Shown here in pieces: positions 7,721-32,776 of a DNA stretch of 32,776 bases. The stretch's first letter is position 1. The number at the start of each line of letters is the position of its first letter. Made by a program: the position numbers and the translations under genes. Below the pieces are notes generated by a model that saw only the letters and a list, made by a program, of their open reading frames with translations, was not told the DNA's origin and searched no databases. The stretch is from Acutalibacteraceae bacterium (GTDB lineage: Bacteria > Bacillota > Clostridia > Oscillospirales > Acutalibacteraceae), in contig JBGVGP010000202.1 of NCBI GenBank assembly GCA_045121735.1, positions 1 through 32,776 on the forward strand, read 5' to 3'.

Positions 7721-7796
<76 letters not shown>

Positions 7797-7936: not shown

Positions 7937-8770
7937 ATGAATAAATGCTGGTATGACTATAAAACCGTAATTATCACAGGAGCTTCAAGCGGTATGGGTA
8001 AGGGACTTGCAGAAAGACTTATACGTGACCATAACTGCAAGGTTATCGGTGTTGCCCGTACTGAGTCAAAGCTTGAGGCCTTCAAGCAGGAGCTTGGTAA
8101 TAAGGGTGACTACTTTACATATTATCCCTTTGACGTTTCCGTTAAGGAAAACTGGGAGAGCTTTGCCCTTAAGCTTAAGGAAGAAAATATTCACCCCGAT
8201 ATTCTCATAAACAATGCAGGTATTCTGCCTAAGTTCAACCGTTATTCAAAAATCACTCTTGAGGACGTTAATCACACAATGCAGATTAACTTTTTCTCCT
8301 CGCTTTATGCTATAAATGCGCTTCTTCCCGTTATTCTCAAGTCACCGACCCCCGGTATTGTCAACATTGCTTCCTCTGCCGCACTCTGCTCACTTGCAGG
8401 TACATCAATTTATTCTGCAAGTAAGGGCGCACTCAAAAGCTTTACCGACGCTCTTCGCGAGGAGCACAGAAAGGACTGCTACGTTGGTCTTGTATGCCCC
8501 GGCTTTACAAAAACCGACATCTTCCGCAACCAGGACAAGAGCTCTGACAAGACAATGAAGGCGCTCAATATGGTAAGCACCGACTGCGACAAAATGGTTG
8601 ACCTTATTGAAAAGGGCATATGGAAAAAGAGAGGGGATATGGTCTTCGGCATGGATGCCCACGCTATGAGCATAGGCAACAAGCTTCTCGGCACAACCTG
8701 CTCACGCCTTGCAAGTAAGGTAATTGAAATTGCTGACCTTTCAATTTTCCGTGAGGTTTTCCGCCCGTAA
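7937..8770 (+). CDS. Short-chain dehydrogenase/reductase (SDR) family oxidoreductase
   Basis: TGASSGMGKG cofactor motif, NNAG, and catalytic YSASK. ATG at 7937 has better spacing from AAAGGAGA than 7931. Confidence 0.85.
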   Translation: MNKCWYDYKTVIITGASSGMGKGLAERLIRDHNCKVIGVARTESKLEAFKQELGNKGDYFTYYPFDVSVKENWESFALKLKEENIHPDILINNAGILPKFNRYSKITLEDVNHTMQINFFSSLYAINALLPVILKSPTPGIVNIASSAALCSLAGTSIYSASKGALKSFTDALREEHRKDCYVGLVCPGFTKTDIFRNQDKSSDKTMKALNMVSTDCDKMVDLIEKGIWKKRGDMVFGMDAHAMSIGNKLLGTTCSRLASKVIEIADLSIFREVFRP

Positions 8771-8809: not shown

Positions 8810-8827
8810 ACACACAACATATGAATA

Positions 8828-8904
8828 TTACTAGGGGTGCTGAATTCTTCGGCTGAGATTATACCCATAACCTGATTCGGATAATACCGACGTAGGCTAA
8901 GTAA
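8828..8904 (+). promoter_or_regulatory. TPP (THI-box) riboswitch aptamer
   Basis: Conserved core GGGGTGC ... CTGAGA ... ACCC ... ACCTGAT..GGATAATACC..CGTAGG, closed by a P1 helix TTACT/AGTAA. Confidence 0.85.
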
Positions 8905-8912
8905 CGAGCTTT

Positions 8913-8950
8913 ATTCCACCCTTTTTGTAAAGGGTGGATTTTTTCTTTTC
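8913..8950 (+). terminator. Riboswitch expression-platform terminator
   Basis: TCCACCCTTT-ttgt-AAAGGGTGGA followed by TTTTTTCTTTT. Lies about 95 nt upstream of the first gene. Confidence 0.8.
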
Positions 8951-9343: not shown

Positions 9344-11114
9344 GGCGGCTCCCGTTGTTTCGGTAATAACGGTTATACTGCTGTGGCTTTTTTTAAGTGA
9401 GGGCGGAATCGTACCTGCCTATATGCTGCCGTCGCCCACCGAGGTTGTAAAAGTCTTTTTCACCGATGCGGACGTGCTTTTTACTCACGCTGTCATCACC
9501 GTACAGGAGGCGCTTTACGGACTTTTACTCGGCACGGCACTCGGCTTTGTTATAGCCGTGCTTATGGACAGATTCACCTTTCTTTATAACGCCTTTTATC
9601 CTCTTCTTGTAATAAGCCAGACTATTCCCACTATTGCCATTGCGCCCCTTCTTGTTTTATGGATGGGCTTTTCTATGGCGCCGAAAATCACTCTTGTTGT
9701 GCTTACAACCTTTTTCCCCGTCTGTGTTTCTCTTCTTGACGGCTTTCGAAGTGCCGACAGGGACGAAATCAACCTTATCCGTTCAATGGGTGGGGGAAGG
9801 GTTCAGATTTTCCGTCACGTGAAGCTTCCTTCAGCGGCAGAGCAGTTTTTTTCGGGGCTTAAGGTTTCCGCCTCCTACAGTGTTGTAGGTGCGGTAATCT
9901 CTGAATGGCTCGGCGGTTTCGAGGGTCTCGGCGTTTATATGACAAGGGTAAAAAAGGCCTACGCCTTCGACAAGATGTTTGCCGTTATTATTCTTATTTC
10001 AGCTCTTTCACTTGTGCTTATGGCTATTATCAGCCTTTTGAGAAATTACGTTCTGCGCTACAAAAAAGACAGACGCTCCTTGAAGAAAGGACGTATTGAT
10101 ATGAAAAAAATTATTGCAATTCTGGTGGCTCTTGTGCTTGTTGCAGGTGTGGCAGGCTTTTTCCTTAGCAAAGAGAAAAACACAGATGAGCCCGCCGAAA
10201 TCACTCTTTGCCTTGACTGGACACCCAACACGAACCATACGGGCTTTTTTGTTGCCGATAAGCTCGGCTACTACGAAAAAGAGGGCATTAAAATTACAAT
10301 TGTTCAGCCGCCCGAAAACGGTGCAGAGCTTATGACTGCTTCGGGTAAGGCACAGTTTGGCATTTCCTTCCAGGATACACTTGCCGATTTATTCAGCGCT
10401 GAAAATGCGCCTGAAATCACAGCCGTTGCGGCAATTCTTCAGCACAACACCTCGGGCATTATCTCACGCAAGGGTGAGGGCGCTGCCACTCCCAAGGGGC
10501 TTGAGGGCATGCGCTACAGCACCTGGGACTGGCCTATTGAGCAGGCTACCGTAAAATACATTATGGAAAAGGACGGCGGTGACTACAGCAAGCTTCAGCT
10601 TATACCAAACGCCGTAACCAACGAAGCCGAGGCGCTTAAAAACAAGGATACCGACGCTATCTGGATATACTATGCCTGGGCAGGTGTAGCCGCTGAAAAA
10701 GCAGGTCTCGACTTTGACTACTTTGCCCTTACGGATATTGACGAAATATTTGACTACTACACCCCCGTAATAGTTGCAAATAACACCTTCCTCAAGGAAG
10801 AGCCCGAGCTTGCAGCAGCCTTTATGAGGGCAACCAAAAAGGGCTACGAGTTCGCCGTTAAAAATCCCGAGGAAGCAGCTGAAATGCTTGTTGAGGGCGA
10901 TACTACAGGCTCACTAGACTCATCACTTGAGCTTGTTACCGCAAGCCAGAAGTGGATAAGCGAAAAATACATTGACGACGCCGAGCAGTGGGGCATTTTT
11001 GACGCTGACAGATGGAACCGCTATTATTCCTGGGTCTATGAGCAGGGACTTATTACAAAAGAAATTCCCGAAGGCTTCGGCTTTACTAATGAATTTATTA
11101 AGGATGCTGATTAA
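9312..11114 (+). CDS. Fused ABC permease (ThiX-like, NitT/TauT type) plus NMT1/THI5-like substrate-binding protein (ThiY-like)
   Basis: Single 600-aa frame. Residues 1-250 are a multi-TM permease. There is no stop before residue 264 (MKKIIAILVALVLVAGVAGFF, an extra TM without a lipobox Cys). A periplasmic-binding-type domain follows. TTG start overlaps the preceding gene. Confidence 0.75.
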   Translation: MTKRYQSITNKAAPVVSVITVILLWLFLSEGGIVPAYMLPSPTEVVKVFFTDADVLFTHAVITVQEALYGLLLGTALGFVIAVLMDRFTFLYNAFYPLLVISQTIPTIAIAPLLVLWMGFSMAPKITLVVLTTFFPVCVSLLDGFRSADRDEINLIRSMGGGRVQIFRHVKLPSAAEQFFSGLKVSASYSVVGAVISEWLGGFEGLGVYMTRVKKAYAFDKMFAVIILISALSLVLMAIISLLRNYVLRYKKDRRSLKKGRIDMKKIIAILVALVLVAGVAGFFLSKEKNTDEPAEITLCLDWTPNTNHTGFFVADKLGYYEKEGIKITIVQPPENGAELMTASGKAQFGISFQDTLADLFSAENAPEITAVAAILQHNTSGIISRKGEGAATPKGLEGMRYSTWDWPIEQATVKYIMEKDGGDYSKLQLIPNAVTNEAEALKNKDTDAIWIYYAWAGVAAEKAGLDFDYFALTDIDEIFDYYTPVIVANNTFLKEEPELAAAFMRATKKGYEFAVKNPEEAAEMLVEGDTTGSLDSSLELVTASQKWISEKYIDDAEQWGIFDADRWNRYYSWVYEQGLITKEIPEGFGFTNEFIKDAD

Positions 11115-11852
11115 ATGATTAAGCTCAAAGCAGAAAACATAACCGTAACCTACGAAAACGAGCCCGTAATAGAAAAAATCAACCTCACACTTAAAAAGGG
11201 AGAGATTGTTTCACTTATCGGTGCAAGCGGATCGGGTAAAACAACCTTTTTTAACGCCGTTGCAGGGCTTTACGGTATTGATGAAGGCAGAGTATTTCTT
11301 GACGGCGAGGATATAACGGGTAAAACGGGTAAGGTTAGCTATATGCTTCAGAAGGATTTGCTCCTTGCTCACTATACCATAATCGACAACGTATCCCTGC
11401 CCCTTGTTATGAAGGGTGAAAAGAAAAAGGACGCCCGTAAAAAGGCATCGGAATACTTTGAGCTTTTCGGTCTTTCGGGCTGTGAAAAGAAATATCCCTC
11501 AGAGCTTTCGGGAGGCATGAGACAGCGTGCCGCACTTATGCGCACCTACCTTACGGGTAACGATGTTGTTCTGCTTGATGAGCCCTTCAGCGCTCTCGAT
11601 ACCATTACAAAAAGTGCAATGCACTCCTGGTATCTCGACATTATGAAGGAAATCGGACTTTCTACAATTTTTGTCACCCACGATATTGACGAGGCAATTC
11701 TCCTTTCAGACAGAGTATACATCCTTTCGGGTGTACCGGGCAGAATTACCGACGAGATAAAAATCGACCTGCCCAAGCCCAGAAGCATTGACGAGGTTAC
11801 AGACGAGGAGTTTGTAAGGTACAAGAGGATGATAAGGGAGAAGATACGATAG
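11115..11852 (+). CDS. ABC transporter ATP-binding protein (ThiZ-like)
   Basis: Walker A GASGSGKTT, signature LSGGMRQR, Walker B VLLDEPFSALD. Start lies 1 nt after the upstream stop. Confidence 0.85.
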   Translation: MIKLKAENITVTYENEPVIEKINLTLKKGEIVSLIGASGSGKTTFFNAVAGLYGIDEGRVFLDGEDITGKTGKVSYMLQKDLLLAHYTIIDNVSLPLVMKGEKKKDARKKASEYFELFGLSGCEKKYPSELSGGMRQRAALMRTYLTGNDVVLLDEPFSALDTITKSAMHSWYLDIMKEIGLSTIFVTHDIDEAILLSDRVYILSGVPGRITDEIKIDLPKPRSIDEVTDEEFVRYKRMIREKIR

Positions 11853-11887
11853 AGCCAAGGGCCAGAGGGCCGAGGGCCGAGTAGCAC
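11853..11887 (+). repeat. Heptad tandem array (GGCCRAG type)
   Basis: AGCCAAG GGCCAGA GGGCCGA GGGCCGA GTAGCAC. Begins at the nucleotide after the stop codon at 11850-11852. Confidence 0.8.
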
Positions 11888-11915
11888 CCTTCGGGTGCAG
11901 TAGTAAGTAACAAGG

Positions 11916-11942
11916 AAAAACCGCCCATCAGGGCGGTTTTTT
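11916..11942. terminator. Bidirectional terminator (ACCGCCC-N4-GGGCGGT family)
   Basis: AAAAACCGCCC-atca-GGGCGGTTTTTT between convergent genes. Confidence 0.8.
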
Positions 11943-13663: not shown

Positions 13664-13696
13664 TAAAAAAAACGCACCGAAAATCGGTGCGTTTTC
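13664..13696. terminator. Terminator (ACGCACCGA family, copy 1)
   Basis: A-run, ACGCACCGA-aaa-TCGGTGCGT, T-run. Near-identical to 16653-16685. Confidence 0.8.
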
Positions 13697-13697
13697 C

Positions 13698-13719
13698 TTA
13701 CTACTTACTACTTACTACT
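13698..13719 (-). repeat. Heptad array (GTAGTAA x3 on the minus strand)
   Basis: TTACTAC x3 on the + strand. Begins 2 nt downstream of the stop of the 13721-14245 gene. Confidence 0.8.
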
Positions 13720-13720
13720 C

Positions 13721-14245
13721 TTACAGTGCAACAGCCATTGCAACAGTTGCGATTACGGCAGCAATAAATGTGATGCCGTAGCTTTCAAGGTAAGAGCCGA
13801 TGTAAAGAATTACAATAGCAGGGGAGTAAAAAATCTTCTGAAGAATGTTGCCCTGCTTATAAACCTTTTCCTTCATATTGATAGCGTCCTCAACAAGGCT
13901 GTAGCTGTTTACAAAAAGTGAAACGGAAAGCCAGTATGAAACGGCACATGCAATTGCAAGAAGTACATTTGTTGTTCCGTAGAAGAAAAGGAACACAACG
14001 GGGAATATTGCAAGCAAGAGTGCGCCGATAGCGTTGAAGAATGCGGGAACGAAGCAGAAAGCAAAGGCCGAACGGGCAGTATGCATAAGCTCGTGGTCTA
14101 CATGGCCTGCGAGCTCATCCTGTCTTAAATATCTGTTGTCCTCAACAGGCACCTTACAGATACGGCAGATAATCTGTTCCCAGAAGCATCTTACATAAGC
14201 ACCGGGGAAGGTGATATATTTTGTAATGTAATAAAAAGCTGTCAT
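13721..14245 (-). CDS. Integral membrane putative zincin metalloprotease (DUF3267-like)
   Basis: 174 aa with an HELMH (HExxH) motif followed by several TM helices. Overlaps the upstream gene by 4 nt. Confidence 0.6.
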   Translation of the reverse strand: MTAFYYITKYITFPGAYVRCFWEQIICRICKVPVEDNRYLRQDELAGHVDHELMHTARSAFAFCFVPAFFNAIGALLLAIFPVVFLFFYGTTNVLLAIACAVSYWLSVSLFVNSYSLVEDAINMKEKVYKQGNILQKIFYSPAIVILYIGSYLESYGITFIAAVIATVAMAVAL

Positions 14246-16462: not shown

Positions 16463-16490
16463 CAATTCGCAATGCGCAATGCGCAATTCC
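16463..16490 (+). repeat. Heptad array (CAATGCG type)
   Basis: CAATTCG CAATGCG CAATGCG CAATTCC, starting 3 nt after the queH stop. Confidence 0.8.
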
Positions 16491-16540
16491 CCCTCTCCGT
16501 CAGACCTTTGGTCTGCCACCTCTCCCGATGGGAGAGGCAA
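16489..16540 (+). repeat. Y-hairpin-Y'-R element, copy 1
   Basis: CCCTCTCC GTCA CAGACC-ttt-GGTCTG CCA CCTCTCCC gat GGGAGAGG. Confidence 0.85.
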
Positions 16541-16566: not shown

Positions 16567-16620
16567 CCTCGGCTCTCCATTTGGGAGAGCTGTCAAAATC
16601 AAAGATTTTGACTGAGAGGG
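16567..16620 (+). repeat. Hairpin + GTCAAAATC palindrome + mirror purine module, copy 1
   Basis: GCTCTCC-atttg-GGAGAGC, then T GTCAAAATC-aaa-GATTTTGAC T GAGAGGG. Confidence 0.85.
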
Positions 16621-16652: not shown

Positions 16653-16685
16653 TAAAAAAACGCACCGAAAAATCGGTGCGTTTTC
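16653..16685 (+). terminator. Terminator (ACGCACCGA family, copy 2)
   Basis: ACGCACCGA-aaaa-TCGGTGCGT plus TTTT. Together with the following heptads it is about 98 percent identical to 13664-13719. Confidence 0.8.
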
Positions 16686-16686
16686 C

Positions 16687-16708
16687 TTACTACTTACTAC
16701 TTACTACT
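16687..16708 (-). repeat. Heptad array (TTACTAC x3)
   Basis: Identical to the array at 13698-13719. Confidence 0.8.
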
Positions 16709-16739
16709 AAAAAAACGCCCCATCAAGGGGCGTTTTTTT
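16708..16739 (-). terminator. Rubrerythrin terminator (bidirectional)
   Basis: ACGCCCC-atcaa-GGGGCGT flanked by A- and T-runs. Confidence 0.75.
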
Positions 16740-19766: not shown

Positions 19767-19805
19767 TAGTAGTCAGTAGTCAGTAGCCAGTAGTCAGGAG
19801 TCAGG
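19767..19805 (+). repeat. Heptad array (AGTCAGT type)
   Basis: TAGT AGTCAGT AGTCAGT AGCCAGT AGTCAGG AGTCAGG, starting 3 nt after the stop at 19762-19764. Confidence 0.85.
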
Positions 19806-19831
19806 AAACCGCCCGAAAGGGCGGTTTTTTT
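19806..19831 (+). terminator. Terminator (ACCGCCC-N4-GGGCGGT family)
   Basis: AAACCGCCC-gaaa-GGGCGGTTTTTTT. Confidence 0.85.
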
Positions 19832-22582: not shown

Positions 22583-22631
22583 AATTCGGAATTCAAAATT
22601 CGGAATTCAAAATTCGGAATTCGGAATTAAC
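22583..22631 (+). repeat. Heptad array (AATTCGG / AATTCAA, 7 units)
   Basis: AATTCGG AATTCAA AATTCGG AATTCAA AATTCGG AATTCGG AATTAAC. An inverted partner ATTCCGAATTC lies at 22741-22751. Confidence 0.85.
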
Positions 22632-23946: not shown

Positions 23947-23955
23947 GAGTAGGCC

Positions 23956-23982
23956 GTAGGGTACGCCCTGTGTGGCGTACCG
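23956..23982 (+). repeat. GGTACGCC hairpin element, copy 1
   Basis: GTAG GGTACGCC ctgtgt GGCGTACC G. Matches the reverse complement of 30665-30691 at 26 of 27 positions. Confidence 0.85.
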
Positions 23983-24002
23983 CAAGCAAACAGTAATAAG
24001 TA

Positions 24003-24036
24003 GTCACGCGCGAGTAAATTCGTGCGTGACTTTTTG
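24003..24036 (+). terminator. prfB terminator (GTCACGCGCGA family, copy 1)
   Basis: GTCACGCGCGA-gtaaat-TCGTGCGTGAC plus TTTTT. Confidence 0.8.
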
Positions 24037-24094: not shown

Positions 24095-24140
24095 CTCCTT
24101 CCGTCACCCTTCGGGTGCCACCTTCCTCAAAGAGGAAGGC
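24095..24140 (+). repeat. Y-hairpin-Y'-R element, copy 2
   Basis: CTCCTTCC GT CACCC-ttc-GGGTG CCA CCTTCCTC aaa GAGGAAGG. Confidence 0.85.
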
Positions 24141-24143
24141 TTT

Positions 24144-24195
24144 AAGGCTCCCTCGCTGAGGGAGCTGTCAAAATCTATGATTTTGACTGAGGGAG
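24144..24195 (+). repeat. Hairpin + GTCAAAATC palindrome + purine module, copy 2
   Basis: GCTCCCTC-gct-GAGGGAGC, then T GTCAAAATC-tat-GATTTTGAC T GAGGGAG. Confidence 0.85.
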
Positions 24196-24297: not shown

Positions 24298-24382
24298 TTT
24301 TTCATACGCCACAGCGTATTTCATAGCGCAGCTATTTCATATCCGCAGGATATTTCATAAATCCGTAAGGATTTATTTCATT
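24298..24382 (+). repeat. Array of four mini-hairpins separated by (A)TTTCAT
   Basis: TTTCAT occurs at 24300, 24319, 24335, 24353 and 24376. The intervening palindromes are ACGC-caca-GCGT, AGC-gca-GCT, ATCC-gca-GGAT and AAATCC-gtaa-GGATTT. Confidence 0.75.
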
Positions 24383-24385
24383 GTC

Positions 24386-24494
24386 CCCTGGCTACTCACT
24401 ACTCTCTACTGCGCTGTCAGGCGCCCTGGCTACTCACTACTCTCTACTGCGCCGTCAGGCGCCCCTGACTACTGCCTACTGCCTACTGACTACT
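24386..24494 (+). repeat. 38-bp tandem direct repeat x2 plus heptad tail
   Basis: CCCTGGCTACTCACTACTCTCTACTGCGC(T/C)GTCAGGCG at 24386 and 24424, with 1 mismatch. The tail is CTGACTA CTGCCTA CTGCCTA CTGACTA (24465-24494). Confidence 0.85.
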
Positions 24495-24952: not shown

Positions 24953-26606
24953 CTTTGATTCTTATGTAAAAGAAATCTGTAAGGATATAAAATCAAGACC
25001 GAGACGTGAAGAGGTTGAAGAGGAGCTGCTTTGTCATCTCGAGGATAACTACGAAAGAAATCTCAATATCGGTATGACCGAGGAAGAGGCAAGGCTCAAT
25101 GCCATTAAAGAAATGGGGGACGGTGAATTACTTTCCTATTATATTTCACAGGTCAATTCAGATTCACCGCTGAAAAATATGAATTCTGCACTTATAGGTA
25201 TAATAAGCGGATTTGTAGGCCTTAACTTCCTGTTTTCAGGCGTTGTAAAGGAGACTGCAGTCGCTTTTGGCTTTATACTTATGTTCCTCCCTCTTTTAAG
25301 AATGAGGAAAATGAACAAAAAGGCAGAAGCCGCCCTTCACTTTTTCAATTTTTATGCCCTTTCACAGCTTTTTTATTACTGCATAAGCATAGGCAATATA
25401 CTTCCTCAATGGGTGTTTTACACTTATATAATTGTTAATTCTCTTTTTGAGGGTCTTTTCTGGATTTTCCTTTTCTCTTCAATTTATGAGCTTTGCAGTA
25501 ATAACCTTGATGAAGAAGCAAAAAAAACAAGGCTTGTTTTCTGCGGTGTGTTTTACATGCTTTTATCCTTTCTGTCAGGCTATATTCTTATTCTCTCCGA
25601 GGGTGAAAGCGTACACATTGATGATTTCATCATGCCTTTAATTCTGATTTTTATGTTCATATTTACTCTTGTTCAGCTTTTCAGGGCAAAAAGTCTTTTA
25701 TGGGCAGCTGACAGTGAGTACGGTATTGAGTCTGCAAACAAAAAGAATCTTGCCGTTTATTACTGTGCAGGACTTTTCTGCCTTATTACAATAATCGGCT
25801 GCAACTATTTTGCCTCAACAAAGGAGCCTGTAAAGGCAGAGCATATAATTCACGATGTTTCACAGGAAGAACAAAAGGAAGCCGACAGGGTAAGACAGAA
25901 AATGCTCAAGTGGGACGTTGACCCACAGATTGTTGAGGATTTACCCGACAGCGAAATTCTGAACTATAAGGATGCTGAATTTGTTTCTTTCGGTGCTGAC
26001 GGCGGAAGCCTCGGCGGTTCATCCTACGACAGCGGAGCAAGCAGTGACCTTTACTACTATTGGTTTTTCATTCCCGATAAGGAATACGAGGGTAATTATG
26101 ATGTAAGGCTGCTTTGTTATATTGAAAGTCACTATGCAGACAAGGTAAAAAGCCTTTACCGGAAAGGCTTTTACTATATGCCGTGGCAGAATTATTCCTA
26201 CGGCTTCGACATTTTTCCCCTTAACTTTGAGGATGAGTTCAACGGCTCTTACATTGGTATAATCACCGAAGAAAAGGGAAAGAAATACAATGCAGAGCCC
26301 TTTTTCACTTACAGAATCAAGGATACCGAGGAAGGATTTCCGAATGATTACCCCAAGGGCTTTGAATACAGAGAGGAAAAGGGGCAACGGGTATATTTTG
26401 CCATACCATTTGGTGTAGCCAACCCCGAGGAATTTGAAGCCACAATATATGCGGCAACGGTAAGGCAGCGTTGGTTTACGGGCTTTAATTACAAAAGCTC
26501 TGCCGAATATATCAGAACTATTTTCAAGGGTGACAGCCTGCATATACCTCAGGATACTTATATGCCCTATTATTACAGGCTGCATAATATTTATAGTAGT
26601 AAGTAG
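24939..26606 (+). CDS. PadR-associated multi-pass membrane protein with large C-terminal domain
   Basis: ATG at 24939 (RBS GGGAGG) overlaps the padR end by 14 nt. N-terminal DUF1700-like helical prefix (DFDSYVKEICKDI...EEELLCHLEDNYE), about 6 TM helices, then a ~260-aa Tyr-rich soluble domain. Confidence 0.65.
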   Translation: MLPLDFDSYVKEICKDIKSRPRREEVEEELLCHLEDNYERNLNIGMTEEEARLNAIKEMGDGELLSYYISQVNSDSPLKNMNSALIGIISGFVGLNFLFSGVVKETAVAFGFILMFLPLLRMRKMNKKAEAALHFFNFYALSQLFYYCISIGNILPQWVFYTYIIVNSLFEGLFWIFLFSSIYELCSNNLDEEAKKTRLVFCGVFYMLLSFLSGYILILSEGESVHIDDFIMPLILIFMFIFTLVQLFRAKSLLWAADSEYGIESANKKNLAVYYCAGLFCLITIIGCNYFASTKEPVKAEHIIHDVSQEEQKEADRVRQKMLKWDVDPQIVEDLPDSEILNYKDAEFVSFGADGGSLGGSSYDSGASSDLYYYWFFIPDKEYEGNYDVRLLCYIESHYADKVKSLYRKGFYYMPWQNYSYGFDIFPLNFEDEFNGSYIGIITEEKGKKYNAEPFFTYRIKDTEEGFPNDYPKGFEYREEKGQRVYFAIPFGVANPEEFEATIYAATVRQRWFTGFNYKSSAEYIRTIFKGDSLHIPQDTYMPYYYRLHNIYSSK

Positions 26607-26636
26607 TAAGTAGTGAGTAGTCAGTAGTCAGTAGTC
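26595..26636 (+). repeat. Heptad array (AGTAGTA x2, AGTAGTG, AGTAGTC x3)
   Basis: Six units. The last four codons and the TAG stop (26604-26606) of the upstream gene lie inside the array. Confidence 0.9.
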
Positions 26637-26667
26637 ACGCGCGATTAAGTTCGAGCGTGACTTTTTT
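26634..26667 (+). terminator. Terminator (GTCACGCGCGA family, copy 3)
   Basis: GTCACGCGCGA-ttaagt-TCGAGCGTGAC plus TTTTTT. Confidence 0.8.
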
Positions 26668-26695
26668 GTTTACATCCGCACGCAGTAAGGACCAA

Positions 26696-26746
26696 GGACT
26701 CCCTCCGTCACGGCTTTGCCGTGCCACCTCCCTCAAGGAGGGAGAC
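26696..26746 (+). repeat. Y-hairpin-Y'-R element, copy 3
   Basis: CTCCCTCC GT CACGGC-ttt-GCCGTG CCA C CTCCCTC aag GAGGGAG. Confidence 0.85.
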
Positions 26747-26853: not shown

Positions 26854-26883
26854 CTCGGACCTTGGCTCTTGGCCCTCAGCCCT
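26854..26883 (-). repeat. Heptad array (GGCCAAG type, minus-strand sense)
   Basis: + strand CTCGGAC CTTGGCT CTTGGCC CTCAGCC. Lies just beyond the glyQS terminator. Confidence 0.75.
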
Positions 26884-26913
26884 AAAAAAACCGCCCCGAA
26901 AGGGCGGTTTTTG
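26884..26913 (-). terminator. glyQS terminator (ACCGCCC...GGGCGGT family)
   Basis: Minus strand AAAAACCGCCC-tttcg-GGGCGGTTTTTTT. Confidence 0.85.
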
Positions 26914-28446: not shown

Positions 28447-28488
28447 GAGTAGTCAGTAGCCAGTAGTCAGGGCCGAGGACCGAGTAGG
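28447..28488 (+). repeat. Heptad array (mixed AGTAGTC and GGCCGAG types)
   Basis: GAGTAGT CAGTAGC CAGTAGT CAGGGCC GAGGACC GAGTAGG. Confidence 0.85.
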
Positions 28489-28512
28489 GACACGGCTTGC
28501 CGTGTCCGCAGG

Positions 28513-28561
28513 TTTCCCTCTCCGTCACTTCGTGACACCTCTCCCAAGGGGAGAGGCAAGG
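28513..28561 (+). repeat. Y-hairpin-Y'-R element, copy 4
   Basis: CCCTCTCC GTCAC-ttc-GTGAC A CCTCTCCC aag GGGAGAGG. Preceded by the hairpin GGACACGG-cttg-CCGTGTCC. Confidence 0.85.
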
Positions 28562-29924: not shown

Positions 29925-29975
29925 ACTCGCCGTGCAGGCATTACTTTTTTTGTAAAAAAAGTAACCAAAAAAGCT

Positions 29976-30605: not shown

Positions 30606-30639
30606 ATTTATCATTCCTTTTCTGCGCCCGAAGGGCGCT

Positions 30640-30660
30640 CTGACTACTGACTACCGGCTA
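30640..30660 (-). repeat. Heptad array (TAGTCAG type, minus-strand sense)
   Basis: + strand CTGACTA CTGACTA CCGGCTA, inside the ogg-nth spacer. Confidence 0.7.
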
Positions 30661-30664
30661 TTCA

Positions 30665-30691
30665 CGGTACGCCACATAGGGCGTACCCTAC
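30665..30691 (-). repeat. GGTACGCC hairpin element, copy 2
   Basis: Minus strand GTAGGGTACGCCCTATGTGGCGTACCG. The TAG stop of the ogg-like gene (30688-30690) is part of the element. Confidence 0.85.
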
Positions 30692-31500: not shown

Positions 31501-31603
31501 TTTTATACCTATTTTCTTTTTTTACTTGCAGGGTTAATTATACCATAATCGGGACATAAAAGCAACTTACAGGGTATATTTTAACCGTTTTATAAAAAAA
31601 CAC

Positions 31604-31632
31604 TTGCAACTTGACTTTCTTTGTGCTAGAAT
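31604..31632 (+). promoter_or_regulatory. Promoter of dnaA
   Basis: TTGCAA (31604-31609), 17 nt, TGc-TAGAAT (31624-31632). Confidence 0.55.
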
Positions 31633-31739
31633 TATAGAGTATGTAATTATGTTTTTTTATCTTTATATTTAATATATATATTTAATTATATATAAGGCAT
31701 TTTTGCATGATTATAAAAAATTAACACAGGAGGTTCAAT

Positions 31740-32776
31740 ATGGATTCTTTTGCTGAAATATGGCAACTTGTTCAACAGGAGCTTAAAAATCAGGTAACCG
31801 AAGTAGCCTACAATGTATGGCTCAGCCCTCTCGAATTCGTTAAGTTTGAAAACGACACGGTTTATCTTTCAATAAGCGAGTTCAAGAAAAATATTATAGC
31901 CGATAAATTTATGAATACTCTTACCGGTGCATTTGAAGCAATTCTCGGCTTTAAGGTTGAAATTGTTTTCCTTGTTCCCGGTGAAACCAAAGCACAGGAA
32001 AAGGCACAGACAGAGGAAGTACAGTCCTTTGAGCACGATTACACCTTTGATAATTTTATCACAGGCCCTTCAAACCGTTTTGCTCACGCGGCTGCACTCA
32101 ACGTTGCAAATAATCCGGGTATTGCCTATAACCCTCTTTTCATTTACGGTCATTCAGGTCTTGGTAAAACCCACCTTCTTCTTGCAATAATGAATGAAAT
32201 CAAGCTTCAGCGTCCCGATGCAAAAATTATTTACACAAGCGGTGAGCTTTTCACAAACGAGCTTATCTACTACATCGGAAATCATAACACCTATGCCTTC
32301 CACGAAAAGTACAGAAACTGTGACGTGCTGCTTGTTGACGATATTCAGTTTATCGCAAAGACAGAAACAACCCAGGAGGAATTCTTCCACACCTTCAACG
32401 CACTTAAAAATAACGGCAGTCAGATTGTTCTTACCTCTGACCGTCCTCCGAGAGAAATGATGACCCTTGAGGAGAGACTCCGTACCCGTTTTGAAATGGG
32501 ACTTATCGCTGACGTTCAGCCTCCCACACTCGAAACAAGAATGGCTATTGTCAAAAAGAAGTCTGACGACCTTAACATCATCCTCGGTGACGACGTTATC
32601 AAGTTCATTGCAGAAAATATTAAAAAGAATATCCGTCAGCTTGAGGGTATTGTTAAAAAGATTTGTGCTTACCGCGATGTTGAGGGCTCTTCTCCCAGCA
32701 TTGCCGTTGCTAAAAGAGCTATAAGCGACATTATTAACGACAGTCAGCCTACTCCCGTAACCGTTGAAACTATCAT
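31740..32776 (+). CDS. dnaA: Chromosomal replication initiator DnaA (5' partial, runs off the window)
   Basis: My own translation from the ATG at 31740 (RBS ACAGGAGGT) gives MDSFAEIWQLVQQELK...YTFDNFITGPSNRFAHAAA...GHSGLGKTHLL (Walker A)...LLVDDIQF (Walker B)...LTSDRPP. It is open to the window end and absent from the ORF track because it has no stop. Confidence 0.9.
   Translation, partial: MDSFAEIWQLVQQELKNQVTEVAYNVWLSPLEFVKFENDTVYLSISEFKKNIIADKFMNTLTGAFEAILGFKVEIVFLVPGETKAQEKAQTEEVQSFEHDYTFDNFITGPSNRFAHAAALNVANNPGIAYNPLFIYGHSGLGKTHLLLAIMNEIKLQRPDAKIIYTSGELFTNELIYYIGNHNTYAFHEKYRNCDVLLVDDIQFIAKTETTQEEFFHTFNALKNNGSQIVLTSDRPPREMMTLEERLRTRFEMGLIADVQPPTLETRMAIVKKKSDDLNIILGDDVIKFIAENIKKNIRQLEGIVKKICAYRDVEGSSPSIAVAKRAISDIINDSQPTPVTVETI

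Follow-up and report, generated by a model that had tools for sequence, protein, structure and literature searches.

The 32.8-kb window analyzed here, the whole stretch from position 1 to 32,776 of contig JBGVGP010000202.1 of an uncultured, gut-type Acutalibacteraceae bacterium (Clostridia, Oscillospirales), carries numerous tandem arrays of 7-nt units between its genes. Taking the array at 26595-26637 as our focal element, we found that the window arrays agree with the known intergenic heptanucleotide repeats in each defining feature open to testing. They are specific in period and arbitrary in unit sequence, they avoid coding DNA, they are polar in orientation, they turn over between related genomes, and they take up insertions. 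We hold with moderate confidence that the arrays arise from a duplication process that advances in 7-nt steps irrespective of sequence, combined with selection.

Heptanucleotide arrays in the window

Arrays were detected with Tandem Repeats Finder and a self-match scan of our own and compared with Markov shuffles of the window (n = 50); the window was the sole part of the genome available for assessing how many loci carry arrays. Tandem Repeats Finder placed period-7 arrays starting at 11854, 13697, 16463, 16686, 19768, 22583, 24392/24430/24465, 26595, 28448, and 30640. These coordinates match those of the preliminary description, which had reported intergenic period-7 arrays that often abut stop codons. 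In total, the window holds approximately 16 period-7 arrays, located in nine of its 24 intergenic regions. The self-match scan revealed eight arrays of period 7, compared with zero to three for each other period between 4 and 13; at period 14, twice 7, it revealed six. The shuffled sequences contained a mean of only 0.12 period-7 arrays.

According to our hand-made gene map, the source of both the coding share and the intergenic count, 85.7% of the window is coding and every array is non-coding, an outcome with a chance probability of ~5e-10 for 11 arrays. Four classes of unit are present, which we refer to as S (AGTAGTM), G (GGCCRAG), E (AATTCGG/AATTCAA), and CAATGCG. Distinct units had already been recognized, but two of those listed previously, CTGACTA and TTACTAC, are the reverse complement of AGTAGTM and so belong to class S, leaving only four. 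The S unit contains stop codons in all three frames, as previously pointed out, and does so on both strands; because of this, an S array can never lie within an open reading frame (ORF). The absence from ORFs is thus automatic for class S, whereas it is a real result for the other classes. A simple stop trap had been judged insufficient as a general explanation, and we agree, as the G, E, and CAATGCG classes fall outside such a reading.

The arrays and the elements adjoining them are as follows.

11853..11881, + strand: G array AGCCAAG GGCCAGA GGGCCGA GGGCCGA G, beginning at the first base past the TAG (11850-11852) of an ABC ATPase gene; identical in relative L001.
11884..11915, + strand: hairpin GCACCCTTCGGGTGC at 11884-11898, then an S remnant, AGTAGTA AGTAACA AGG, at 11899-11915; a two-way terminator (11916-11942) comes after the remnant, and the same composite occurs at another locus in relative L002.
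13697..13719, - strand: S array of three AGTAGTA units, 1 nt past the stop codon (13721-13723) of a gene for a 174-amino acid membrane protein; a terminator (13665-13695) is directly next.
16463..16487, + strand: CAATGCG array of ~3.6 units, 2 nt past the QueH stop codon; L002 has a G array and a hairpin here.
16686..16708, - strand: S array of three AGTAGTA units, with the rubrerythrin terminator (16709-16737) on one side and a second terminator (16654-16684) on the other.
19768..19806, + strand: S array of ~5.3 units grading into AGGAGTC AGG, 3 nt past the stop codon of a metallophosphoesterase gene; abuts a terminator (19806-19831).
22583..22628, + strand: E array with ~6.6 units of AATTCGG/AATTCAA; it lies in the 5' leader of prfB, where the predicted -10 box ends (22549) ~34 nt before the array.
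23947..24004, + strand: degenerate S array past the prfB stop codon, split by a hairpin (23960-23981) and running into a terminator (24002-24031); the L133 counterpart is unsplit (G AGTAGAC AGTAGTC AGTAGTC).
24385..24494, - strand: S heptads with 5-bp GC hairpins (four S units, hairpin, three S units, hairpin, three S units), including a 38-nt tandem duplication; antisense to the PadR gene, its end 13 nt upstream of the predicted PadR -35 box (24508).
26595..26637, + strand: focal S array of two AGTAGTA, one AGTAGTG, and three AGTAGTC units; the last unit overlaps the 5' arm of a strong terminator (26634-26661).
26683..26699, + strand: AAGGACC AAGGACT, a pair of G-like units continued by the two-hairpin "family A" element at 26699-26744; the block is missing from relative L124.
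26854..26883, - strand: G array AGGGCTG AGGGCCA AGAGCCA AGGTCCG AG, in GlyRS sense, directly past the T-tract of the GlyRS terminator (26884-26912); in L133, a G array begins 2 nt past the GlyRS stop codon.
28448..28488, + strand: three S units continuing in the same 7-nt register into two to three G units, antisense to GlyRS and 9 nt from its predicted -35 box (28438-28433, - strand); a hairpin (28488-28507) is next.
30640..30654, - strand: two TAGTCAG units forming an S array that is flanked by hairpins 30666-30687 and 30624-30638; the ogg-nth spacer containing it measures 73 nt.

The typical S array of this lineage finishes with AGG(G/A), and either a small GC hairpin or a terminator comes next. 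A search against Rfam at both thresholds returned no family over the arrays or hairpins, the matches being limited to a tRNA, a TPP riboswitch, and Gut-1. A literature search for tandem AGTAGTC strings matched only unrelated plant papers.

Placement and orientation

Nine sites carry arrays downstream of the stop codon or terminator of a gene, and all nine read in the sense of that gene, on the + strand at 11853, 16463, 19768, 23947, and 26595 and on the - strand at 13697, 16686, 26854, and 30640. The gap between stop codon and array measures 0, 1, 2, and 3 nt at 11853, 13719, 16463, and 19768, respectively, and at 26595 the array overlaps the stop codon. These five cases bear out most of an earlier count of six arrays at stop codons; the sixth, in the ogg-nth spacer, comes after a hairpin and is 33 nt away from the stop codon of ogg. 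A terminator T-tract marks the start of the arrays at 16686 and 26854. Our map of the window confirmed that a site between stop codon and terminator is the usual one, as first described.

The final 12 nt of the upstream ORF (...Y S S K stop) belong to the focal array itself, which thereby contributes the three C-terminal codons plus the TAG stop (26604-26606) to the gene for a 5xx-amino acid membrane protein. The earlier statement that none of the arrays lies in a gene body therefore holds insofar as all are non-coding, but needs amending at this 3' end. A related situation was seen in relative L129, where an S array (AAGTAGTAAGTAGTAAG, 8144-8160) lies within the called nth ORF and is read through in one open frame; this ORF is 8-12 residues longer than its orthologues. 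Such read-through indicates that arrays can remodel a protein C-terminus.

The E array in the prfB leader (22583) also reads sense. The arrays of two further sites, 24385-24494 and 28448-28488, are not placed behind stop codons; they abut the predicted promoters of PadR and GlyRS, respectively, at 13 and 9 nt from the -35 box, and read antisense to the gene downstream. Because arrays lie in the prfB leader and in the stretch that separates a stop codon from its terminator, the layout of the sequence implies that they would be transcribed.

Replication, considered previously as a source of strand bias, does not account for these orientations. The dnaA gene starts at 31740 and runs off the window end, which puts all of the window to one side of the origin. 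Sense arrays nevertheless occur on both strands, pointing both ways with the adjacent gene; we therefore ruled out that replication direction sets their orientation, which follows the neighboring gene. Separately, within 31501-32776, dnaA has an AT-rich stretch with TTTATA-type repeats in front of it that may be the replication origin, placing the window beside oriC.

Turnover at fixed sites in relatives

We reached related genomes through rubrerythrin and GlyRS homologues; an exact-protein look-up with the window GlyRS and nth proteins gave no match. The GlyRS homologues were labeled as metagenome-assembled genomes of Clostridia, Oscillospiraceae, or Acutalibacteraceae. In L001, whose flanks are ~99% identical to the window outside one imported segment, the arrays are identical, indicating that they are not hypermutable. 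Identical arrays were also found in L123.

The arrays of more distant relatives, compared at corresponding sites, have turned over rapidly. Past a shared promoter and small hairpin, the prfB leader has seven E units in the window, two S units plus a hairpin in L124, five G units in L133, and no array in L135. After the QueH stop codon, CAATGCG units in the window correspond to G units in L002. The ogg-nth spacer is 6, 7, and 13 nt long and free of arrays in L125, L129, and L135, compared with 43 nt in L124 (S units), 80 nt in L132 (three S units and a hairpin), and 73 nt in the window (hairpin, two S units, hairpin); the L124 and L132 arrays do not have the window's first hairpin. At the GlyRS promoter (28448), relatives have E-antisense units, or S and G units in swapped order. 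On the 3' side of the 5xx gene, the six S units of the window correspond to three degenerate units in L124, the counts across relatives being six, three, or two. Unit number varies between relatives, but not between the window and L001. A metagenome scan with the conserved terminator for further variation in unit number returned one contig and provided no population sample.

At the far end of this range, L125, with a GlyRS gene 90% identical to that of the window, has zero period-7 arrays in 21 kb.

Heptamer arrays in other phyla

We scanned a one-genome-per-species collection for exact (AGTAGTC)x3 and obtained at least 120 loci, compared with an expectation of ~0.3 for one 21-mer. The matches listed total 874 kb and come from Cyanobacteria, Acidobacteriota, Chloroflexota, Planctomycetota, Bacteroidota, Bacillota (including Acutalibacteraceae), and others. 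Among these matches listed, to which the counts in this and the next paragraph refer, we found 311 period-7 arrays in 106 unit classes, and 27 or fewer arrays of any other period from 4 to 12. Only 28 of the 161 period-7 arrays with an open frame lie in ORFs, with an ORF cover of 84%; the share inside ORFs is 60-90% for arrays of period 6, 9, or 12. Avoidance of coding DNA, complete in the window (0 coding arrays), thus extends to the cross-phylum loci.

Orientation follows the same polar rule. Read in the AGTAGTC orientation, the median distance is 9-41 nt to the 5' neighbor versus 90-182 nt to the 3' neighbor; these distances depend on naive ORF calls that bias start-codon distances toward small values. 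Sense arrays overlap or supply a stop codon in 12 cases, 11 among these matches plus the focal array, and no antisense array was found less than 10 nt from a facing stop codon. S arrays are followed by a terminator in nine cases, compared with 7-14 in controls. A universal cassette of array plus terminator was thereby ruled out across phyla; the arrangement is confined to this lineage.

We then counted stretches with an exact match to different tandem units in viral contigs.

S, AGTAGTC x3: 35 stretches
G, GGCCGAG x3: 8 stretches
E, AATTCGG x3: 8 stretches
Scrambled heptamer, AAGGTTC x3: 36 stretches
Scrambled heptamer, ACGTTGA x3: 14 stretches
Octamer, AAGGTTCG x3: 0 stretches
Octamer, AGTAGTCT x3: 0 stretches
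Hexamer, AGTGTC x4: 21 stretches

The two scrambled heptamers, which have the same composition as the S unit, are as common as S itself, ruling out that the S unit is special, for example as a horizontally spread element. The period is what is special, and the unit sequence is arbitrary. A conserved period with unconserved sequence had been regarded as unusual; this does not hold in the present setting, as the literature documents the combination for prokaryotic simple repeats in general, in agreement with the 8-36 stretches found for heptamers and none for octamers.

A probable duplication process in 7-nt steps

The explanation we favor consists of a mutational process and a selective one. 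A process blind to unit sequence would duplicate DNA in 7-nt steps; polymerase slippage is the cause proposed in the literature, and the slippage-generated spacers suggested in the preliminary description correspond to the leading hypothesis there (Mrazek 2007, as cited in PMC4679880 and PMC4692102). Selection would then purge arrays from coding DNA, presumably because 7 is not a multiple of 3, so that they would survive only in non-coding spacers. As observed, the polarity of the arrays is fixed: the 5' end is placed against a constrained element, be it the stop codon of a gene, the T-tract of a terminator, a hairpin, or a -35 box, and the array reads sense wherever the direction of transcription is known, in the 3' untranslated regions and the prfB leader. 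On top of this, small hairpin and terminator modules would move into and between arrays in a lineage-specific traffic, whose way of spreading we can only infer. No dedicated function is required; S arrays also provide three-frame stops and a spacer, predicted to be unpaired, before terminator hairpins.

Several points weigh against this explanation. The slippage step is itself inferred, and the choice of 7 nt is without explanation. Within the lineage, few unit classes recur at many loci, and composite modules have been copied between loci (13664-13719 and 16653-16708; 11853-11942 and L002). Purely local slippage does not predict such recurrence and copying, which therefore call for some dispersal or sequence selection. 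Neutral mutation with purifying selection also leaves the strict polarity without explanation, and the support for polarity from other phyla includes naive ORF calls whose start-codon distances are biased small. Finally, the array-free close relative L125 hints at a lineage-specific factor. The span among close relatives from none (L125) to many arrays (the window) offers a route, through comparative genomics, to the factor behind the 7-nt step.

Hairpin elements and a possible mobile origin

Small hairpin elements have their hot spots in the arrays of this lineage and become shuffled along with them, resulting in fast-changing, mosaic intergenic regions. A 22-nt hairpin, GGTACGCC-CTRTGT-GGCGTACC, sits in the prfB and ogg arrays of the window and is absent from L133 and L132. 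At the prfB 3' end, the window and L133 differ by this hairpin within an S array; the hairpin after ogg belongs to the same family. The array 3' of the 5xx gene is split by an element with CGTCAC...GTGACG ends, 105 nt long in L258 (~780-890, - strand) and 169 nt long in L133 (3260-3450), where it holds a further nested insertion of 63 nt. Whole modules are also duplicated. The segment at 16653-16708, comprising array and terminator, is a 56-nt copy of 13664-13719, and the block at 11853-11942 matches a block past rubrerythrin in L002, a different locus.

Such observations could mean that dedicated mobile-element machinery writes and spreads the arrays, which would then be both the footprints and the landing pads of miniature elements. 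The machinery could be the repeated insertion and excision of small hairpin elements leaving 7-bp target duplications, a hairpin-guided HUH nuclease, or slippage of a reverse transcriptase on an RNA intermediate. Hairpins inside arrays (the 22-nt element in the prfB and ogg arrays, the 105/169-nt element in L258 and L133 with its nested insertion), identical array-plus-hairpin composites at unrelated loci, different unit classes at one site in different relatives, and a close relative lacking arrays are all in line with this possibility, and the presence of arrays in many phyla and in viral contigs is compatible with the horizontal spread of a factor. We nevertheless consider it unlikely. No transposase, reverse transcriptase, or HUH nuclease gene lies within the window, and we found no convincing 7-bp target-site duplications around the inserted elements, which lack clean flanking duplications. 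The repeats studied by Rehm et al. are not tied to insertion sequences or transposable elements either (PMC4692102), and the fact that all of the arbitrary heptamers form arrays speaks against specificity for a target sequence. With respect to the mobile-module scar suggested earlier, the arrays do travel with hairpin elements and are interrupted by them, but no transposition mechanism is shown.

A further reading, to which we give rather little credence, proposes a lineage-specific and horizontally transferable factor that would actively write polar arrays beside hairpins and gene boundaries. It might be a nuclease, a transposase, a reverse transcriptase, or an accessory protein of a polymerase, and would work in steps of 7 nt; the arrays would then serve as landing pads through which miniature hairpin and terminator modules move from one intergenic region to another. 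The spread from L125 to the window would make the preference for 7 nt testable by phylogenetic profiling.

Further repeats occur in the window and its relatives. A two-hairpin element of ~45 nt, mostly with heptads ahead of it, occurs at 16491-16537, 24095-24139, 26699-26744, and 28516-28556 (+ strand), and additionally in L133 and L135. When seven copies are compared, compensatory changes affect seven of the 14 pairs predicted for it; it has no Rfam match, and in its second hairpin a CACCTCC arm resembling the 16S rRNA 3' end pairs with a GGAGG-like arm. A 46-nt repeat with two hairpins, GGCTCYC...GGGAGAGCTGTCAAAATCnnnGATTTTGACTGAG, is present at 16571-16616 and 24146-24191, both copies lying shortly downstream of the two-hairpin element. 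A palindromic AT-rich element, AAAGTTTTTTGGTTACTTTTTTT.CAAAAAAAGTAAC then GCC..CGGCGAGC, is found at 29938-29965 and in L124, L130, L131, L132, and L135, and a second family has the form AAAGTTTTGGTCAAGCTTTT.CAAAAGCTTG....; in relatives, both families are inserted a few bases from many stop codons (GlyRS, prfB, nth, major facilitator superfamily transporter, ABC ATPase). A Gut-1 RNA match (RF01706, 60.6 bits, above the gathering score) covers 24313-24383 on the - strand, with the nest of heptads and hairpins at 24385-24494 directly 5' on that strand. Upstream of GlyRS in L135 (~9700-9830), a similar series of hairpins spaced by TTTCAT stands beside S arrays.

Arrays as possible functional sites

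HutP binds UAG-N4-UAG-N4-UAG and opens a terminator. The S arrays fit this spacing of three UAG triplets; the G, E, and CAATGCG arrays do not. The arrays might accordingly be functional RNA or DNA sites, either as a 7-nt register read by a multimeric protein, HutP-like in the case of class S, or as a cassette in which S units act as three-frame stop and insulator. S arrays give a sense UAG every 7 nt directly before terminators, and their last unit overlaps the 5' arm of the terminator at 26595 and 23991. In our RNA predictions, S arrays are unpaired, the focal array mostly so, whereas G and E arrays can self-pair through GGCC or GAATTC. Orientation tracks transcription at nine post-gene sites and in the prfB leader (window and two relatives), and in a Nostoc preprint the deletion of heptamer repeats altered the regulation of the recO promoter.

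Against such a role, the G, E, and CAATGCG arrays lack UAG, yet have the same placement and replace S at the same site, and scrambled heptamers are as common as S. The cross-phylum matches listed show no preference of S arrays for terminators (9 versus 7-14 in controls), and neither unit number nor presence is conserved between relatives. No HutP-family gene lies within the 32.8-kb window. A dedicated function for the arrays thus appears improbable.

That the arrays are assembly or scaffolding artefacts can be practically dismissed: although contig L123 ends in the array at 19768, so that repeats can break assembly, the arrays recur base for base in independent assemblies from other samples (L001, L133/L134, L258; L123 also has the same arrays) and are sited in an orderly manner between stop codons and terminators. 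Because L123 (a Logan contig of 905 nt, short-read) stops within that S array, we suspect the repeats of breaking assemblies. Arrays can extend or replace gene 3' ends (26595 here, nth in L129) and can break short-read assemblies (L123), both of which are relevant to annotation.

Other features of the window and its relatives

The gene order around GlyRS is heavily rearranged in L124 and L129-L135 relative to the window, with GlyRS genes 90-96% identical in DNA, and prfB, ogg-nth, the ABC transporter, and the PadR pair differ in order and orientation among those relatives. Between 8800 and 10400, the window and L001 show a mosaic divergence of ~20% across the thiamine-transporter genes and ~1% elsewhere, suggesting import by recombination. 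Ordinary features comprise a tRNA gene and a TPP riboswitch (7721-7793 and 8823-8916), the riboswitch lying upstream of thiamine-binding and transporter genes.

Comparison with known repeats

Three types of repeat that differ from these arrays can be set apart. Contingency repeats are likewise short tandem units able to change number, but have units of 1-5 nt, compared with 7 nt here, and the window arrays do not lie in the 5' part of an ORF. Such repeats are found in the ORF or promoter spacer of surface or virulence genes and vary strongly between close strains. A phase-variation locus was ruled out, the neighbors being housekeeping genes (GlyRS, RF2, ogg, nth, rubrerythrin), no array of the window being located between a -35 and a -10 box, and the arrays being identical in near-identical L001. 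CRISPR arrays have 24-48-nt repeats with unique spacers of about the same length; the units here are 7 nt and directly adjacent. Repetitive extragenic palindromes and bacterial interspersed mosaic elements (REP/BIME) are imperfect palindromes of 20-40 nt, and S arrays have no palindrome and are predicted unpaired, although the accompanying hairpins may be REP-like.

The likeness is much closer to the short tandemly repeated repetitive sequences (STRR) of cyanobacteria, which Mazel reportedly described in 1990 as several heptamers per genome, tandem and intergenic, and in which Elhai is said to have found, in 2008, hairpin elements of 21-27 nt inside Nostoc heptamer repeats, with RNA intermediates proposed. 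Both systems combine several heptamers per genome, an intergenic location, and tiny hairpins in the arrays; the phylum and the units are different, and STRR arrays can be much longer. The 22-nt hairpin of the window falls within the size range of the Nostoc elements, a resemblance of architecture alone. The testable features that define STRR and long simple sequence repeats (SSRs) were all found here: units of exactly 7 nt that are joined head to tail in two or more copies and outnumber those of other periods, many loci with several unit sequences (9 of 24 intergenic regions, four classes), a non-coding bias in the window and in the cross-phylum loci, and variation in unit number and sequence at the same locus between related genomes.

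According to the survey of long SSRs (5-11 nt) by Mrazek 2007, as summarized in PMC4679880 and PMC4692102, most genomes rich in repeats have heptanucleotides as their commonest kind of long simple repeat, and polymerase slippage is a possible cause. Dominant heptanucleotides, a scattered phylogeny, and the slippage proposed there are shared with the present arrays; this lineage was outside that survey, and polarity and module mosaics are not reported in it as summarized. MacGregor 2015 (PMC4679880) described TAACTGA repeats in marine Beggiatoaceae, cyanobacteria, and Bacteroidetes, patchy across phyla. These are similar in being a stop-bearing heptamer in 2-6 intergenic copies with a patchy distribution, but one unit dominates there. 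In the window, most arrays follow stop codons.

The closest agreement in placement is with the intergenic GGGAATC repeats of Xanthomonas and GGGGA(C/T)T repeats of Nostoc PCC 7120 described by Rehm et al. 2015 (PMC4692102). Those repeats lie nearer to their 5' neighboring ORF, whichever way that ORF points, and occupy either the coding strand, within 50 bp of a stop codon or overlapping it, or, ahead of ORFs, the non-coding strand. Most of them are transcribed; they differ between related species and have no known function, and no association with insertion sequences or transposable elements was found (PMC4692102). The window arrays share with them the tandem 7-nt units, the many loci, the non-coding bias, the variable number and sequence, and the polar rule in each of its parts, namely proximity to the 5' neighbor, sense orientation past stop codons, and antisense orientation upstream of genes. 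They differ in that their units are not G-rich and no quadruplex is possible, in their Clostridia host, and in that four unrelated classes occur within 20 kb, interleaved with intrinsic terminators and small hairpins. Bacterial heptanucleotide repeats have been known since 1990. Our data add evidence that the placement rule also applies to AGTAGTC arrays in many phyla, the observation that arbitrary heptamers, but not octamers, form arrays, and a series of close relatives with different classes, or no array, at one and the same site; what is new in the window is a Clostridia host, new unit sequences, and the coexistence of four unrelated classes under one placement rule.

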